Shown here: piece after piece, positions 628 through 23,054 of the stretch
Layout of the letters: each line of letters begins with the position of its first letter
Position numbering within the stretch: the stretch's first letter is position 1
From: Nanopusillaceae archaeon
GTDB lineage: Archaea; Nanobdellota; Nanobdellia; Nanobdellales; Nanobdellaceae
Direction of reading: 5' to 3'
Assembly (NCBI GenBank): GCA_038735675.1
Contig: JAVYNJ010000007.1
Coordinates: forward strand, 1 to 24,546
DNA: 24,546 nt
The notes under the pieces: model-generated
What the model saw: the letters and a program-made list of their open reading frames with translations, nothing else
What the model was told of the DNA's origin: nothing
The model's database searches: none
Program-made: the position numbers and the translations under genes

Positions 628-3213
628 TTATTTAAAATCTTTCATATTTTCAAAAAACTTCTTATATATTAGTCTAGCAGAATATTTATCTAAATACTCG
701 TTAAAATTACCACATTTAGAAGAAAGAATACATTTTGGACATCCATCTAAACATTTACAACTTATTAAAGATTCTCTAGACTTTTTCAAAAGTTTTTCTA
801 TATTTTCAAAGATTATTTCGGCTAAACCTACTCCATTTTCAAATCCTTCATATATAAAAATTGTTGGTTTTTGAGTTTGAAAATGAATTTGATATGAAAA
901 ACCACCCAATTCTTTTGAGTCAATATAAGTAACTATTGGGGATATTTTTATTATATTATGTTCTATAGCATGTAATCCAGATCTAAAAGCTGCCTGAAAA
1001 TCAATAAGCTTTTTAATATAAAAAACTAATTTTTTATCTTTAATTTTAAGATCCTTCAAAAAGTTTTCTACAATTTCTTTAATTTTTCTACTAGCTAAAC
1101 CTCTATATTTATCATAAAAATAATCTTTAACTACGGTAGTCGAAAAATTATATAATTCTTCGAAAGAAACATCATATTTCTTCTCAGATATTAATTTTGA
1201 AATTTTCTTTTTTAAATTCTCAAGATATTCTCTCTCTATTTTTTCATATTCTTTAGGTATTTCAATCCAAATAGCTTTAGTTGTAAACTTTCTTTTAATT
1301 GTATCTTCATAATATATTATATTCTGTATATAATCTTCTCCATATTTTATTTTTTCTAAATATCCTAAATATTCTCTATTTACTTCTATAAGCCCTAAAT
1401 TTATTTTCCAATCCCCAATATTCTTTTCATTATATTTTTCAATGATCCTAACTTCTTCATTATAAACTGGTTCGGTTTCTATACCAGATTCTTCTCTTTG
1501 TACAATAACAAAATTTATATTTCCCACACTATTTAACGAAATTGATCTATAAGATTTTCCTAAAGAATAGTAAACCATTCCCGGTAATAAATATTCATAA
1601 AAAGCTGCTTCATCAATTTCTTCTATGATTTTACCTTTAGATTTTAACATATTCACGATCTTAAATGCTGACTCTTCTTTTTTAAGATTCTTAATTATTT
1701 CATAGTCAGACATATCGATTAAATAATATACTTTATCAGATATATTTCTCAGCCCAGAATAAATTACTTTTTTTATTGGAATTAAATATTCTTTTCCAAA
1801 TAAACTATCTTTAATCACTCTAACATATCCTTTTTCTATTAATTTATCTAACAGCTTTTTATCTTTTTCCTCCAATAAATCTAAAGGAAATCTACCAAAT
1901 TCCTGAATCATGTAAAGCAAATGCTTCTCTCTTATTTTTTCATTGTTTAAATTAATAGGAAGTTCTTCAATATCATTTCTCTTTATTTTTTCAAATAATT
2001 CATCAAAATTAGAAGAATAATACAAATCTAACGCATCCTTCTTAAAAATTATTATATTTAAGCCATCAGAAGTTCTACCAGATCTTCCAAATCTCTGTAT
2101 TAAAGAAAATATTCCATCTCTAGGTATTCCATAATTAGCAACTGCAGTAACATCTCCTATATCTATACCTAATTCTAAAGCAGAAGTAGTTATCAAAATT
2201 TTATACTCATTATTTTTAAATTTCTTTTCTATTTCCTTTCTAATATCCTTTAAATAACTTGCTTTATATGTAAAAACTAAATTACTTTTTTCAAGATCTT
2301 CTATTAACATTTTATATTTCTCTACTCCTTTTTTTGATTCTAAAAAAACTAAAGATTTTATATCTTTATCTAAAAGTACTCTTATCAATCTCTTTAAAAT
2401 AACTTTAGGGCCAACATTTTTGGTATCTATTCCAATTATCCATTTGTCATATCTTTTACTATAATCTTCATCTACAACATAAAAATCTAAATTAAATAAT
2501 TTTTTTGCAAAATTTGAGGGATTTTTCAAAGTTGCAGATAAAGCTAAAAATTTAAAAAAATTGTTTTTATACAAATAGCTTAACAAATTTATTAATCTTC
2601 TAAAAACATATGCAGAATTTGTACCAAAAACTCCTCGATACGAATGTAACTCATCTACAACTATTAAATCCAAATTTCTAAAGAAATAATACATTTTTCC
2701 ATGATTTTTTAATAAAAATAAATGCAAGTTATCTATAGTAGTCAATATTACATTTGGTTTATCTTTAATTATTTTTTCCTTTTCTCTATAAGACAAGTCA
2801 CCTAGAAGAATTCCAAATTTTAAATTTATCTTTTTTTTAGATATTGAATTAAACTGATTTATTAGAGCTTGAAATTTTTCAAATTGATCGTATAACAAAG
2901 CTCTTAGAGGATAAATTAATAAATACGTTTTGTTTTGATTTTTTAAATAATTATCTATTATATATAATCTAAAGATATGAGATTTTCCAGAAGCTGTTGG
3001 AGTTGTTACAACCACATTTTTTCCATTATACAATAATTCTAAACTTTCTTTTTGATGTTTATATAATTTTATATCAATTTTATTTAAAAACTCCATTATT
3101 TCATCATTAAAGAATTTAAAATCTTCAAAAATAGGATCTTTTCTTTCTATTTTTTTTATTCCTACAATTAAATCGTTGAATTCCTGCTTTAAATTTTCAA
3201 TAATTTTGTCCAC
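628..3213 (-). CDS. Superfamily-2 DExH helicase with C-terminal DUF1998/MZB Cys cluster (COG1205, YprA/MrfA/Hel112-like)
   Basis: 861-aa ORF with a GTG start (cac at 3211..3213). Helicase motifs are Walker A TTPTASGKSHIF, DExH box VVDELHSY, motif III SATL and motif VI QRFGRSGR. The C-terminal cluster CKCLDGCPKCILSSKCGNF is typical of DUF1998. The gene ends 18 nt upstream of the PCNA start on the same strand. Confidence 0.85.
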   Translation of the reverse strand: MDKIIENLKQEFNDLIVGIKKIERKDPIFEDFKFFNDEIMEFLNKIDIKLYKHQKESLELLYNGKNVVVTTPTASGKSHIFRLYIIDNYLKNQNKTYLLIYPLRALLYDQFEKFQALINQFNSISKKKINLKFGILLGDLSYREKEKIIKDKPNVILTTIDNLHLFLLKNHGKMYYFFRNLDLIVVDELHSYRGVFGTNSAYVFRRLINLLSYLYKNNFFKFLALSATLKNPSNFAKKLFNLDFYVVDEDYSKRYDKWIIGIDTKNVGPKVILKRLIRVLLDKDIKSLVFLESKKGVEKYKMLIEDLEKSNLVFTYKASYLKDIRKEIEKKFKNNEYKILITTSALELGIDIGDVTAVANYGIPRDGIFSLIQRFGRSGRTSDGLNIIIFKKDALDLYYSSNFDELFEKIKRNDIEELPINLNNEKIREKHLLYMIQEFGRFPLDLLEEKDKKLLDKLIEKGYVRVIKDSLFGKEYLIPIKKVIYSGLRNISDKVYYLIDMSDYEIIKNLKKEESAFKIVNMLKSKGKIIEEIDEAAFYEYLLPGMVYYSLGKSYRSISLNSVGNINFVIVQREESGIETEPVYNEEVRIIEKYNEKNIGDWKINLGLIEVNREYLGYLEKIKYGEDYIQNIIYYEDTIKRKFTTKAIWIEIPKEYEKIEREYLENLKKKISKLISEKKYDVSFEELYNFSTTVVKDYFYDKYRGLASRKIKEIVENFLKDLKIKDKKLVFYIKKLIDFQAAFRSGLHAIEHNIIKISPIVTYIDSKELGGFSYQIHFQTQKPTIFIYEGFENGVGLAEIIFENIEKLLKKSRESLISCKCLDGCPKCILSSKCGNFNEYLDKYSARLIYKKFFENMKDFK

Positions 3214-3243
3214 AATAATATAATTTTGTTAAAATAATTAAAA

Positions 3244-3300
3244 GTATCAGTCAGGAGTGCTTAATCATTTTTCATTTCCCGGCAAAACCCTTCATCATCC
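3244..3300 (-). ncRNA. Candidate C/D box sRNA (2'-O-methylation guide) immediately 3' of tRNA-Asn
   Basis: Minus-strand read from 3300: GG-AUGAUGA(C box, 3298..3292)-AGGGUUUUGCC(11 nt)-GGGA(degenerate D', 3280..3277)-AAUGAAAA-AUGAUUA(C', 3268..3262)-AGCACUCCUGA(11 nt)-CUGA(D box, 3250..3247)-UAC. The box order, spacer lengths and ~55 nt size fit archaeal C/D sRNAs. This is also a local GC-enriched patch in AT-rich intergenic DNA. Confidence 0.6.
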
Positions 3301-3301
3301 A

Positions 3302-3373
3302 CGCCGCCGGGGGGATTTGAACCCCCGACCCTCCGGTTAACAGCCGGATGCTCTACCGCTGAGCTACGGCGGC
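3302..3373 (-). tRNA. tRNA-Asn (anticodon GTT), 72 nt, no encoded CCA
   Basis: Reverse complement folds as GCCGCCG-TA-GCTC-AGCGGTA-GAGC-A-TCCGG-CTGTTAA-CCGGA-GGGTC-GGGGG-TTCAAAT-CCCCC-CGGCGGC-G. It is a perfect cloverleaf with fully paired stems and anticodon loop CU-GUU-AA. Confidence 0.95.
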
Positions 3374-3395
3374 AATATAATATAATAATAAATTT

Positions 3396-3402
3396 CTTTT
3401 AA
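3396..3402 (-). promoter_or_regulatory. Putative TATA box (TTAAAAG) for the tRNA-Asn / C/D sRNA unit
   Basis: TTAAAAG on the minus strand lies at -29..-23 relative to the tRNA 5' end (3373). The same heptamer sits upstream of tRNA-Ile. The AT-rich background makes this weak evidence. Confidence 0.3.
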
Positions 3403-3413
3403 AAAATATTCTT

Positions 3414-4736: not shown

Positions 4737-5912
4737 TTAAGCTAATTTTTCATAAATTCTTATCAATTCATTAAGTTTACTAATTCTTTCTCCACCAACA
4801 ATACCAAACTTTACATAAGGAACCTCAAAAGCTGCTGCTAAATGTGCTATTATATTACTCTCTGTTTCTCCAGATCTATGAGAAAATATAGGAAGTATAT
4901 TATTTTTTTTACAATATTCAACTGCCTCCATTGTTTTCAAAATTGATCCTGCCTGATCAGGTTTAATTATTACGGATTTCACAGAATTATGATCTAACGC
5001 TTTTTTTATTCTTTCGATATTAGTAACAGTTAAATCATCTCCCGTAATTAAAATATTTGTTTTTTTATTTATTTCTGCAAAACCTTCAAAATCATCTTCA
5101 TGTAAAGGATCCTCAACATAAAATAATTTATAAATTTCTATAAAATTCAATACACTTTCTATAAATTCTTCTCTTTTGTATTCTTTCTTTTCAAAAATAT
5201 ACTTATCCTTGCTATATAGATGTGTTGCAGCAATATCTATTCCTAAATTTAGCTTTACAGAATATTCATTTTCAAAACTCTCAATTAATTTTGACAACAA
5301 ATCAAAAATTGATGTTGTCTTCAAAGATGTAGTCCAAGCCCCCTCATCATTTTTTCCATAAGTAAAACTACTATCTAAAATTTCTAATCTTTCTCCTAGA
5401 ATTTTATGATAATAGGATGATAAAAATACTGCTAACTTTATATTATCAACTTGAGGAGAAATTAAGAATTCTTGTATTGAAGTACTTCTCCATTTTGCAT
5501 GAGCTCCACCGCCAATAACATTAGCCAATATCTTCAAATTTTTAATATTTGGCTTTTTATTGAAAAATGCATATATTGGCTCATTATAGTAAAAGGACCA
5601 AGCTCTTAGAATTGCATATTCTATTGCTAGTAAAAGATTGCTTCCATATTTTTTAATTCCCCCAATAAGCTCAAAATCGTTTTCAAAGTTTTTTAGATCA
5701 CTTAAAGTTTGTATATCATATGTTTTTAAAAAATCAACTAGCTCTAAATTAAACAATTCTACTGCTTTTTCTACATCTATTTTGTTTGCTTCATAAGATC
5801 CTTTGCTAGCCCCAGAAGGAACAGATTCTGAAAATCCATTTATTTCAACTTCAATTGTCGGATCTCCCCTAGAATTTAAAACAATTCTTGCCTTAGCATC
5901 AAAAATTCTCAT
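4737..5912 (-). CDS. eno: Enolase (phosphopyruvate hydratase), compact 391-aa form
   Basis: N-terminus is ARIVLNSRGDPTIEVEI...VPSGASKGSYEA. Canonical motifs occur in order: NVIGGGAHA, IQEFLISP, NDEGAW, GIDIAA, YVEDPL, ITGDDLTVTN, IKPDQAGSI, SHRSGETE, VKFG..GGERISKLNELIRI. Confidence 0.9.
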   Translation of the reverse strand: MRIFDAKARIVLNSRGDPTIEVEINGFSESVPSGASKGSYEANKIDVEKAVELFNLELVDFLKTYDIQTLSDLKNFENDFELIGGIKKYGSNLLLAIEYAILRAWSFYYNEPIYAFFNKKPNIKNLKILANVIGGGAHAKWRSTSIQEFLISPQVDNIKLAVFLSSYYHKILGERLEILDSSFTYGKNDEGAWTTSLKTTSIFDLLSKLIESFENEYSVKLNLGIDIAATHLYSKDKYIFEKKEYKREEFIESVLNFIEIYKLFYVEDPLHEDDFEGFAEINKKTNILITGDDLTVTNIERIKKALDHNSVKSVIIKPDQAGSILKTMEAVEYCKKNNILPIFSHRSGETESNIIAHLAAAFEVPYVKFGIVGGERISKLNELIRIYEKLA

Positions 5913-5956: not shown

Positions 5957-6028
5957 TGGGCCCGGGGGGAATTGAACCCCCGACCTCCCGGTTATCAGCC
6001 GGGCGCTCCGCCACTGAGCCACGGGCCC
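5957..6028 (-). tRNA. tRNA-Ile (anticodon GAT), 72 nt, no encoded CCA
   Basis: Reverse complement folds as GGGCCCG-TG-GCTC-AGTGGCG-GAGC-G-CCCGG-CTGATAA-CCGGG-AGGTC-GGGGG-TTCAATT-CCCCC-CGGGCCC-A. All stems are fully paired and almost all G:C. Confidence 0.95.
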
Positions 6029-18085: not shown

Positions 18086-18164
18086 AATTAAATTAAAAAA
18101 TAAAAATTTAAAATAGCCTTAACAGAACCTTTATAAATTTATACTACTAAAAAATTTACTTTTT

Positions 18165-18179
18165 TTGTTGTTGTTGTTG
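18165..18179. repeat. (TTG)5 microsatellite in the longest intergenic region
   Basis: ttgttgttgttgttg read directly from the sequence. On the minus strand it encodes the Gln5 run of a 17-codon mini-ORF. Confidence 0.9.
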
Positions 18180-18421
18180 TTCTTTCTTTTCTTCTTTTTT
18201 CTTTGCCATATTAATATATATTGACAATGATTTTATAAATATTAACGAAAATACTTAAAAATCAAAACATATATCGCTTTATAAAGACCTATCGTAATAA
18301 AAAAACGTCTTCAGATTTTAAATAAAATAAAAGAAAATTTTCAATAAAATAGAATAATGATAAAATTTATATCTAAATTCAAGAAAAGAATAAATAAAAT
18401 TAAAATTATAAAATTACTAAA

Positions 18422-21354: not shown

Positions 21355-22428
21355 TTACTTCACAGTTACACTTTTAGCTAGATTTCTTGGGTAGTCTATG
21401 GGTAATCTCTTTTCTCTTGCAATATAATAGGTCAATAATTGTCCTATTATTACAGAATATATAATAAAATCTGGAAAAGATTCTGATATATTAAAGTCTC
21501 CAGGAATTTTATAAACACTTCCTCCTCTTGCTAATATCTCTTCAATATTTGTTTTTATGTTATCATCCCAATAAGGATTTAAAGATAAAACCTTTGTTCC
21601 TTCTTCTATTAAAGCTAAAGTTCCATGTTTTAATTCTCCACCAGGCAAGGCTTCAGCATGAATGTAAGATATTTCCTTTAATTTTAAAGCTATTTCCATA
21701 GAAGAATAATAATTTATCCCTCTACCAATTATATACAGATCTTTTTCATTTTTTAAATATCTAGATAAATTAATTATTTTTTCTTCATTATTTTTAATTG
21801 TGTTTTCTATTTCTTTAGGTATATCATATAAATTTATTTTTAATCCTAACTTATTTGCAATATAAAAAAATGTAATTACTTGATTTGTAAATGTTTTTGT
21901 TGCAGCAACACATTTTTCCTGACCTGCTTTTATTTCAATAAAATTAGAAGACATTCTTTGAATTGTTGAATAAGGAACATTTACTATAGATAAGATATCT
22001 TTAACTCTACTTTTCAGATCTTTTAATGCTAAAATAACATCCATAGTTTCTCCAGATTGTGATACTGCTATTACTAAAGTATCTCTATCATATTTCATTT
22101 CTTTGTATTCTGATGCCAAAACCGAATATGCATCATAATTTAATTCTCTAAATAATTTTGATCCTATTAAAGATGCATGATAAGAAGATCCTGCAGCGAC
22201 AAAAACAATTTTTTTAGAATCATTAATTTTTTCTATAAAATCATTAATAGTTTTTTCTTGTTCTGTATTTAAAGAATCTATTAATATTTTTGAAACTAAA
22301 ATTTGATCATATATTTCTTTAATCATGTAATGTTCATATTCTTTCTTGTACTCTAAATTTATCCATTTTAGTTTTTTAATTTTCTTTTCTATTAAATTTC
22401 CAGATAAATCATAAAACTCTATTTTCAT
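21355..22428 (-). CDS. glmS: Glutamine--fructose-6-phosphate aminotransferase, C-terminal piece (end of glutaminase domain + two SIS domains)
   Basis: Motifs are HYMIKEIYDQ (domain linker), SIS motifs VFVAAGSSYHASLIG and AVSQSGETMDVILAL, GGELKHGTLALIEEGT, and the canonical C-terminus PRNLAKSVTVK. Confidence 0.85.
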   Translation of the reverse strand: MKIEFYDLSGNLIEKKIKKLKWINLEYKKEYEHYMIKEIYDQILVSKILIDSLNTEQEKTINDFIEKINDSKKIVFVAAGSSYHASLIGSKLFRELNYDAYSVLASEYKEMKYDRDTLVIAVSQSGETMDVILALKDLKSRVKDILSIVNVPYSTIQRMSSNFIEIKAGQEKCVAATKTFTNQVITFFYIANKLGLKINLYDIPKEIENTIKNNEEKIINLSRYLKNEKDLYIIGRGINYYSSMEIALKLKEISYIHAEALPGGELKHGTLALIEEGTKVLSLNPYWDDNIKTNIEEILARGGSVYKIPGDFNISESFPDFIIYSVIIGQLLTYYIAREKRLPIDYPRNLAKSVTVK

Positions 22429-23054
22429 AGATTTATTATTAAGAATTCATAATCATCCATTGTAATTATATTTTCTACTTTATCCAAAAAGGCATATACA
22501 TCTGATGCTAGATATATTGTATTTTTATCTAAACCAACAACTAAAGGGCTGCCATTTTTTATTGCAACTATTTTATTAAGATTTTTTAAATAAATTATGA
22601 CAGCATACGTTCCATAAAAATTTTTAAATATATCTAAAACAATTTCTTTTATTTCTTTTCCATTTTTTAATTCTTCTTCAAACCAATGTGCAAATATCTC
22701 AGAATCTGTTTCAGAAACAAATTTATGTCCTCTTTCTACTAAATAATTTTTTAATTCTAAATAATTATCTATTGTTCCATTATGAACTACAAAAATTTCT
22801 TTATTACAATCATAATGCGGATGGGCATTTATTTCAGATACTTTTCCATGAGTAGCCCATCTGGTATGTCCTATGAATATTTTTGATTTTCCTTTAAAAT
22901 CTATTTTTTCTATCCTTCCAACTTTTTTAAATATAGTTTTATCTGAACAAAACCCATAAGAATCATAGCCTCTATATTCTAATCTTCTCAATCTCTCTAA
23001 ACCTTCTGAAATATCAAAAAATTCTTCAGAAATTATTGCAACAATTCCACACAT
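22425..23054 (-). CDS. glmS: Glutamine--fructose-6-phosphate aminotransferase, N-terminal piece (class II glutamine amidotransferase)
   Basis: It starts MCGIVAII (Ntn catalytic Cys2). It also has LEYRGYDSYG, GHTRWATHG, NAHPH, VVHNGTIDNY and SETDSEIFAH. It ends in an ATGA overlap with the downstream piece. Confidence 0.85.
   Translation of the reverse strand: MCGIVAIISEEFFDISEGLERLRRLEYRGYDSYGFCSDKTIFKKVGRIEKIDFKGKSKIFIGHTRWATHGKVSEINAHPHYDCNKEIFVVHNGTIDNYLELKNYLVERGHKFVSETDSEIFAHWFEEELKNGKEIKEIVLDIFKNFYGTYAVIIYLKNLNKIVAIKNGSPLVVGLDKNTIYLASDVYAFLDKVENIITMDDYEFLIINL

Follow-up and report, generated by a model that had tools for sequence, protein, structure and literature searches.

Is the apparent box C/D small RNA (sRNA) directly behind a transfer RNA (tRNA) gene of a nanoarchaeon a real guide RNA gene, and is it expressed together with this tRNA? 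The question is raised by the tRNA-Asn locus on contig JAVYNJ010000007.1 of the Nanopusillaceae archaeon assembly GCA_038735675.1, where an original prediction had joined tRNA-Asn head-to-tail to a candidate C/D sRNA. We examined positions 1-24,546 of this contig in forward-strand numbering, and this whole stretch is called the window here. The evidence makes us fairly confident that the locus holds a genuine box C/D sRNA gene in one transcription unit with tRNA-Asn. Comparison with related loci suggests that the element is conserved and probably functional and that it would be expressed by way of tRNA-Asn.

On the minus strand the tRNA-Asn gene (3373-3302) is followed by UGG, a 52-nucleotide (nt) box C/D element (3298-3247), UAC and UUUU (3243-3240) (Table 1). 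The earlier base-by-base reading of these features (G3302, U3301, GG, AUGAUGA, AUGAUUA, CUGA, UAC, UUUU) was exact, and the identity given for the tRNA agrees with the call of tRNA-Asn(GUU) by ARAGORN and with a score of 76.5 bits for Rfam family RF00005. The element has no terminal stem, like most sRNAs of Nanoarchaeum equitans, and fold z-scores of +1.4, +0.2, -1.0 and +1.0 give no sign of a stable structure, which suits an RNA whose guides are free and single-stranded. A stable hairpin, a riboswitch and a bacterial-type terminator were rejected on the fold analysis, and the sole overlapping open reading frame (ORF), 27 amino acids (aa) long and antisense to the tRNA, was judged spurious.

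Table 1. Features of the tRNA-Asn/sRNA unit and of the genes downstream of it (window coordinates; alignment columns refer to four lineages)
Feature	Position	Strand	Remarks
AT-rich upstream region, presumed archaeal promoter	3374-3405	minus	promoter function putative
tRNA-Asn (anticodon GUU)	3302-3373	minus	discriminator G3302 included; CCA not encoded
Linker UGG, discriminator to C box	3299-3301	minus	read in the sequence; sRNA 5' leader if RNase Z cuts
C box AUGAUGA	3292-3298	minus	7/7 columns invariant; placed as C box by Rfam sR5 and profile R1
D' spacer AGGGUUUUGCCGGGAA	3276-3291	minus	16 nt (15 nt in relatives)
D' guide core UUGCCGGGAA	3285-3276	minus	10 nt adjoining D'; 10/10 columns invariant
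D' box AUGA (revised, likely)	3272-3275	minus	invariant in 4/4 copies
Loop AAA between D' and C' (K-loop)	3269-3271	minus	3 nt; length fixed, sequence free
C' box AUGAUUA	3262-3268	minus	degenerate; RUGA core kept, last 3 nt vary
D guide AGCACUCCUGA	3251-3261	minus	11 nt; 5/12 alignment columns invariant, with insertions/deletions
D box CUGA	3247-3250	minus	4/4 columns invariant
Trailer UAC + UUUU	3240-3246	minus	presumed oligo-T terminator of the unit
DEAD/DEAH helicase with MrfA zinc-binding (MZB) domain	628-3213	minus	861 aa; context gene, outside the RNA unit
PCNA gene start	1-627	minus	runs off the window edge; no complete ORF in the stretch

The source genome is AT-rich, with a guanine plus cytosine (GC) content of 24%. 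The genes around the element are archaeal (aMBF1, endonuclease dU, DUF357, archaeal SecD, cupin-type GPI and Trm5/TYW2), and the closest relatives of the helicase carry the labels Nanopusillaceae archaeon, Nanoarchaeota archaeon NZ13-N and Nanobdella aerobiophila. On this basis the window is assigned to the Nanopusillaceae (Nanoarchaeota), the terrestrial sister family of N. equitans.

In a genome of this composition ATGATGA-like words and TGA words are common, and all Rfam scores of the element lie below threshold, so that it has to be considered whether UGA-rich motifs have merely come together by accident in an AT-rich spacer. We scanned both strands of the window with regular expressions, using the box pattern of the original prediction and a looser pattern modelled on the N. 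equitans sRNAs, and with both patterns the element was the only match. In 200 first-order Markov simulations of the window the first pattern was never found and the looser one occurred 0.045 times per window, which is thus the upper limit of what chance would supply. Chance would also have to explain the exact position of the element, 3 nt past the tRNA and 3 nt before a T run, its box-specific conservation in four lineages, its top rank in the window with a profile of N. equitans sRNAs, and its composition: with 43% GC it is the sole GC-enriched non-tRNA patch between ORFs, as predicted, the other gaps ranging from 4 to 18% (the two tRNA genes and the gene truncated by the left window edge excluded). 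The simulations and the four-way alignment effectively refute a chance origin. Viral contigs yielded three chance matches within coding sequence of giant-virus bins and no fusion of a tRNA with a C box.

The profile searches point in the same direction. In permissive searches the element was the only site of the window matching any Rfam C/D family, with end-to-end alignments to sR5 (20.5 bits, E 0.0094 in a local search), sR30 (17 bits), sR28, sR47 and sR41. The Pyrococcus families sR5 (RF01304) and sR30 (RF01134) align from C over D' and C' to D with matching spacing; their guides, however, are unrelated, a 4-nt spacer insertion is needed and the scores are sub-threshold, and the element is a member of no Rfam family. 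A second profile, R1, is a sequence-only model of the 25 non-permuted N. equitans sRNAs (Randau 2012, Additional file 2). When run unfiltered over the window, it gave its best score to the element (10.1 bits, E 0.019), which it matched over model positions 1-47 of 49. Under default filters it matched a single site in 110 kb of related loci, the copy of one relative, L002, at full length (17.5 bits, E 3.8e-4). Two other copies, described below, scored low, and the support that the profiles lend to a C/D sRNA is thus real but modest.

A further argument for a C/D sRNA comes from related loci, which were found via orthologues of the helicase encoded downstream. Two near-identical strains (L001 and L123) have the identical tRNA-Asn/element unit. 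In three further lineages, a JGI (Joint Genome Institute) hot-spring metagenome (L002), a Logan assembly (L007) and NZ13-N (L003/L004), with helicases 72%, 74% and 70% identical to that of the window, a homologous element occupies the corresponding position behind tRNA-Asn; this recurrence supports the predicted head-to-tail link of tRNA and sRNA. The four-way alignment comprises the window, L002, L003/L004 and L007. Its tRNA is invariant in 70 of 72 columns and the region upstream in 14 of 32, among them TATATT at the tRNA 5' end, with a conserved ATATATT abutting tRNA position 1. Between tRNA and C box the linker reads UAAA or UAA in the relatives, so that its sequence varies while its length stays at 3-4 nt; this leaves no room for a separate sRNA promoter. 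After the discriminator G the four lineages thus show UGG, UAA or UAAA and never CCA, and in none of them does the linker contain a T run.

Within the element, invariance falls on the C, D' and D boxes and on the ten D'-adjacent guide positions (Table 1). The distal 6 nt of the D' spacer differ by one substitution and one insertion/deletion, and the loop between D' and C' reads AAA, UUA, CUA or AAG with not one of its three columns invariant. C' reads AUGAUUA, AUGAAGA, GUGAAAU or GUGAAGU; its UGA is constant, the first position is A or G and none of the last three columns is invariant, and the GA dinucleotides of D' and C' are conserved in all four copies. The CUGA that directly precedes the D box is CUAG in L003, and therefore the distal CUGA is the real D box. 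Three of the four lineages have an oligo-T run (U4-U6) 2-3 nt past the D box; in L007 this place reads CUUU, and UUUUUU follows after another 6 nt. Fixed boxes and a fixed guide core next to a free loop match what is expected for a C/D sRNA, and ten invariant guide nucleotides beside varying positions, in lineages whose helicases have diverged by 26-30%, argue for selection on base pairing.

The relatives also define the limits of the element. In L121 (ENA ERZ27245618, 2884-3003), with a helicase 64% identical, tRNA-Asn again lies directly upstream, but only 43 AT-rich nt separate the two genes, and this junction contains neither C/D boxes nor a profile match. In Nanobdella (L005), L008 and L122 a different gene lies upstream of the helicase, and there is neither tRNA-Asn nor the element at this place. 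Conservation 3' of tRNA-Asn was thus found in L002, L003/L004 and L007 and is absent in L121. Being present in one clade and missing at the matching junction of L121, the element is a discrete unit and not a generic tRNA trailer or promoter sequence.

The position of the D' box had to be revised. The original prediction had taken GGGA (3280-3277) as D', with two 11-nt spacers; AUGA (3275-3272) is in our view probably the D' box, because the four homologous copies, the Rfam sR5 alignment and profile R1 all place it there, the latter two with a 3-4-nt insertion in the spacer. With this assignment the loop is 3 nt, the D' spacer 16 nt and the D spacer 11 nt long. The predicted length is therefore retained for the D spacer (11-12 nt across the lineages, which fits a guide length of ~12 nt) and lost for the D' spacer. 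A different C-box register, AUGAAGG, would give a D' spacer of 12-13 nt. It is less likely, since no copy departs from the canonical AUGAUGA, whereas AUGAAGG deviates from the box at positions 5 (A/G for U) and 7 (G for A) and itself varies, reading AUGAGGG in L003.

The same RNA might be read with GGGA as D', an 8-nt D'-C' loop and two 10-11-nt guides, of which AGGGUUUUGCC would target GGCA[A]AACCCU. Such a reading would have the symmetric ~11-nt spacers typical of archaeal sRNAs, and GGGA is likewise invariant in the four-way alignment. In addition, the 16S ribosomal RNA (rRNA) of Pyrobaculum calidifontis and Thermoproteus tenax contains near E. coli position 1270 the sequence GGCAAUCCCG, similar to the complement of this guide in its L002/L007 form. 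The N. equitans 16S rRNA reads GCAAAUCCCC at the corresponding site (E. coli ~1270). No significant site for the GGGA guide, however, was found in N. equitans rRNA. With GGGA as D', the invariant AAUGA that opens the 8-nt "loop" would be left unexplained while the next 3 nt vary freely, and the guide would differ in its middle between lineages by a substitution and an insertion/deletion. D'-C' loops of N. equitans sRNAs are 3 nt long in 23 of 25 cases and 4 nt in the remaining two, and none has 8 nt; their D' boxes are CTGA, CAGA, CCGA or ATGA and never GGGA. Since two independent profiles (sR5 and R1) also favour AUGA, we regard GGGA as an unlikely D' box.

The helicase gene lies on the same strand as the sRNA; its GTG start (3213) is 26 nt past the UUUU run and 33 nt past the end of the D box, and its linkage to the element is kept in four lineages. 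It might thus be asked whether the element acts in cis, as an L7Ae-binding kink-turn in the 5' leader of the helicase messenger RNA (mRNA) or as part of the helicase promoter; binding of L7Ae to mRNA kink-turns has been reported (PMC5539422). Such a role is very improbable here. An oligo-T run separates element and helicase (in L007 CUUU and, 6 nt later, UUUUUU), helicase orthologues in L121, L005, L008 and L122 do without the element, and its architecture is the full double motif with two spacers of guide length and not a single kink-turn. Furthermore, kink-turn binding would leave the invariant 10-nt guide core unexplained. The T run itself, ~26-30 nt upstream of the helicase start, may overlap the TATA region of the helicase.

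A C/D sRNA behind a tRNA gene has a close precedent in N. equitans, and the one named in the original prediction is real. There, sRNA8 directly follows tRNA-Val(UAC), and a cut by RNase Z has been suggested as the origin of its 5' end (Randau 2012, Genome Biol 13:R63, PMC3491384); fusions of tRNA and C/D sRNA have been published for tRNA-Val and two tRNA-Gly genes of this organism. Both the sRNA8 unit and the unit described here come from the same phylum and have an sRNA of ~55 nt on the tRNA strand, 3-4 nt past the discriminator, with the order C box, spacer, D', 3-nt loop, C', ~12-nt spacer, D box and T run. They differ in the tRNA (Val and Asn), in the leader (the 4-nt UUUU of sRNA8 and UGG in the window) and in the D' spacer, which is 12 nt in sRNA8 and 15-16 nt here, and the guides of the window element are shared with none of the 26 N. 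equitans sRNAs. Moreover, sRNA8 has a predicted target in 16S rRNA and is backed by 207,100 RNA-seq reads, whereas the window element is predicted from its sequence. Two other N. equitans sRNAs, sRNA4 and sRNA12, have ATGA as D', a 3-nt loop and the form ATGA-NNN-GTGAxxx, like the window element, and many N. equitans sRNAs end with CTGATTTT, comparable to the trailer UAC + UUUU. At the level of sequence features, the locus corresponds to a dicistronic tRNA/C/D sRNA unit.

One N. equitans sRNA shows a further likeness. The window copy and sRNA21 share UUUGCCG right after an AUGAAG(A/G) motif; the D' guide of sRNA21, GUUUGCCGAUUA, targets AAAUCmGGCAAAUUG in 23S rRNA, a site to which guides from three species (P38, N21 and T51) have been assigned. 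The four D'-proximal guide nucleotides differ (AUUA in sRNA21, GGAA in the window), and at the sRNA21 site the window guide would form just 8-9 base pairs, with a G-U pair beside the methylation site. By a hand estimate, ~0.2 occurrences of the shared 7-mer are expected by chance. The 7-mer is found in the window copy only, the other three lineages having GAUUGCC, so that the likeness looks coincidental, and orthology with sRNA21 was rejected.

Beyond the Nanoarchaeota, C/D sRNAs directly downstream of tRNA-Ser in Ignicoccus hospitalis and of tRNA-Pro in T. tenax have been described (Tripp et al. 2017, as summarised in PMC7994747), and the rarity originally ascribed to the arrangement was thus overstated. 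According to this summary, tRNA 3' maturation is proposed to yield the sRNA 5' end there too; phyla, tRNAs and guides are different, and the comparison is one by description. The arrangement is already known and is neither a new mechanism nor a new class of element. In plants, Kruszka and colleagues reportedly found in 2003 dicistronic tRNA-snoRNA (small nucleolar RNA) genes in which the tRNA promoter drives a C/D guide RNA that is released by RNase Z. These genes are eukaryotic, depend on RNA polymerase III and serve nucleolar snoRNPs (small nucleolar ribonucleoproteins), and are therefore an analogy to the unit described here and not a homologue.

If the Nanopusillaceae unit works like tRNA-Val/sRNA8, from which co-transcription, RNase Z processing, assembly of the ribonucleoprotein (RNP) and methylation are inferred, the promoter upstream of tRNA-Asn would drive a transcript of ~135 nt that contains the tRNA, the 3-nt linker, the sRNA and the UAC trailer and ends at UUUU. 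RNase Z would cut after G3302 and mature the tRNA 3' end for CCA addition, a step that tRNA-Asn would need because its CCA is not encoded. The same cut would set the sRNA 5' end at U3301, so that the sRNA would require no promoter of its own. The resulting RNA of ~55 nt could then offer L7Ae two binding sites, the kink-turn formed by C and D (AUGAUGA with CUGA) and the K-loop formed by C' and D' (AUGA, 3-nt loop, AUGAUUA), and subsequently recruit Nop5 and fibrillarin. Genes for fibrillarin, Nop5 and L7Ae were found neither in the window nor in the related loci fetched, the rest of the genomes not having been checked. Within the RNP, the third C of 5'-UUCC[C]GGCAA-3' would receive its 2'-O-methyl group through guide UUGCCGGGAA, whereas the fast-evolving D guide could be an orphan or could track a variable target.

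The target 5'-UUCC[C]GGCAA-3' is what is predicted for the invariant guide when D' is AUGA, and since D' has been reassigned, the target GGCA[A]AACCCU given in the original prediction is probably wrong. For the D guide the N+5 rule does give the proposed 5'-UCAG[G]AGUGCU-3' in the window, but other sequences result in the relatives. The complements of the D guides of the four lineages are UCAGGAGUGCU, UCAGGGAGCUCU, CCAGGGAGCUCC and CUAGGAGGCUC; because the guide differs between them with insertions and deletions, this predicted target is not conserved.

Two sets of rRNAs were available for the target search. The 16S and 23S rRNAs of N. equitans were rebuilt from the supplement of Dennis et al. 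2015, and published N. equitans guide targets were recovered in them. In addition, a 23S rRNA was reached by a protein search with the stop-free antisense translation of the N. equitans 23S rRNA, through a spurious antisense ORF. This complete 23S gene (L127; GCA_054017035.1, JBPMBW010000009.1, 4288-7490) has 66-69% GC in a genome of 26-30% GC and is nanoarchaeote-like. A tRNA-Trp(CCA) gene is located ~115 nt upstream on the same strand, and no 16S gene was seen within the ~3.4-4.3 kb fetched on each side. In N. equitans the rRNA genes are unlinked, and the arrangement in L127 is consistent with this.

Several observations from these and the preceding searches weigh against a genuine, methylation-guiding sRNA. 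For all guides and with either D', no site in the N. equitans 16S and 23S rRNAs beat shuffled guides (63-495 of 500 shuffles were equal or better), and the same was true for the L127 23S rRNA (87-489 of 500). Neither did seven tRNAs from the window and related loci, together with the 3' parts of two N. equitans tRNAs, contain a target. The rRNAs searched, N. equitans and L127, are not known to come from the sRNA-bearing clade, and the lack of a site in N. equitans causes little surprise because no N. equitans sRNA has these guides. The D' spacer of 15-16 nt exceeds the 9-13 nt (~12 nt) seen in all 25 N. equitans sRNAs, the D guide is poorly conserved, with 5 of 12 columns invariant and insertions and deletions between lineages, and the C' box is degenerate. 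All Rfam scores stay under the gathering thresholds (20.5 against 40 bits for sR5, 17 against 38 for sR30), as can be expected because these families are defined largely by their guides. Finally, the copies of L003 and L007, in which C' is more strongly degenerate, reached just 5.7-5.8 bits with R1 and were not top-scoring in their loci.

Some of these points would equally suit an RNA that forms a C/D RNP but has no present methylation target, be it because its guides are orphans, because it serves as a chaperone of rRNA folding only or because the cassette is in early decay. No RNA searched contained a target, the C' box is degenerate, the D' spacer departs from the canonical length, and insertions and deletions show the D guide to be drifting; orphan guides, moreover, have been described as common in archaea. 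It is difficult to reconcile with such an RNA that the ten D'-adjacent guide nucleotides have stayed invariant while their neighbours vary and the helicase has diverged by 26-30%, and the rRNAs searched were those of N. equitans and L127, not known to belong to the sRNA-bearing clade. An sRNA lacking a target is thus improbable, and a methylation guide with a conserved D' guide remains our preferred interpretation.

Single near-matches were no better than shuffled guides and were discarded: UUCCCUGGCAAU in N. equitans 23S rRNA, UAUUCCCGGCUG in its 16S rRNA (~E. coli 803-810), AAAUCGGCAAAUU and AGCCUCCGGCAAG in its 23S rRNA (at the sites of sRNA21 and sRNA16) and CCCGGCGG in the 3' strand of tRNA-Asn itself. 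Searches for rRNA of the same family gave no candidate: a genome scan with GGTGAGAANCCCN{12,24}GGGTTCCCGGCAA had 0 matches, GGATTAGANACCCNNGTATTCCCGGC, a variant that the N. equitans 16S rRNA has around position 800, matched once in metagenomes, to a bacterial 16S rRNA, and scans of viral contigs with a universal 23S motif and a Nanoarchaeota 16S signature found nothing archaeal. A genome scan with TTCCCGGCAAWN{5,11}GCCGGGNGTNAGNCGG returned 102 loci, mostly 23S rRNAs of Nitrososphaerales, Sulfolobales and Calditenuaceae and none from Nanoarchaeota.

A lead for the targets comes from the guides themselves. In each of the four copies, CCGGGA in the D' guide (3278-3283) is partly complementary to UCC(C)UG in the D guide (3252-3257), so that both predicted targets could lie in one hairpin, one on each strand. 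A candidate is a hairpin in 23S domain III near E. coli 1336-1375, in N. equitans UUCCCUGGCAAU...GCCAGGGG. UUCCCGGCAA is the natural 5' strand of this hairpin (~E. coli 1336-1375) in Nitrososphaerales and some Sulfolobales.

It might even be that the sRNA is a mobile or recently gained cassette which landed at the 3' end of tRNA-Asn, and that its guides address one hairpin, so that it would combine the roles of folding chaperone and methylation guide; we consider this a speculative, rather unlikely scenario. If true, the locus would have captured the gain or loss of a guide RNA that lacks a promoter and relies for its expression on transcription of the tRNA and on cleavage by RNase Z. Independently of this scenario, the element adds an apparently unannotated guide RNA gene to the barely studied symbiotic nanoarchaea of hot springs, and it would extend a mode of tRNA-sRNA expression first seen in N. 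equitans to the Nanopusillaceae, with a different tRNA. Presence and absence at one junction, together with a frozen D' guide versus a drifting D guide, provide a small example of how guide genes may be gained, retained and remodelled.

In the sRNA-bearing loci read, the helicase gene starts with GTG preceded by a conserved TATATTATT (window 3211-3213, L002 at 10001, L007 at 282), and in the lineages L121 (3001) and L008 (10001), which lack the sRNA, it starts with ATG. The gene order helicase then PCNA is common to L001 and all relatives, and positions 1-627 of the window are therefore not intergenic. A second tRNA gene, tRNA-Ile(GAU) (5957-6028, minus strand), lies 44 nt upstream of the enolase gene (4737-5912) on the same strand; this is again a tRNA followed by a protein gene, as for tRNA-Asn and the helicase, and no C/D element follows tRNA-Ile. 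The gap between the MetRS and Trm5/TYW2 genes (18086-18421) comprises 336 nt with 16% GC. Neither an Rfam family nor the C/D pattern matches this gap, in which a (TTG)5 run and, at ~18166-18205, a tract rich in T and C stand out.

Nanoarchaeota are known for genes that are split. In the window, GlmS (glucosamine-6-phosphate synthase; 21355-23054, minus strand) appears to be divided at the domain boundary into two ORFs that overlap by 4 nt, one for the glutamine amidotransferase (22425-23054, 209 aa) and one for two SIS domains (21355-22428, 357 aa); this split could instead reflect a frameshift.

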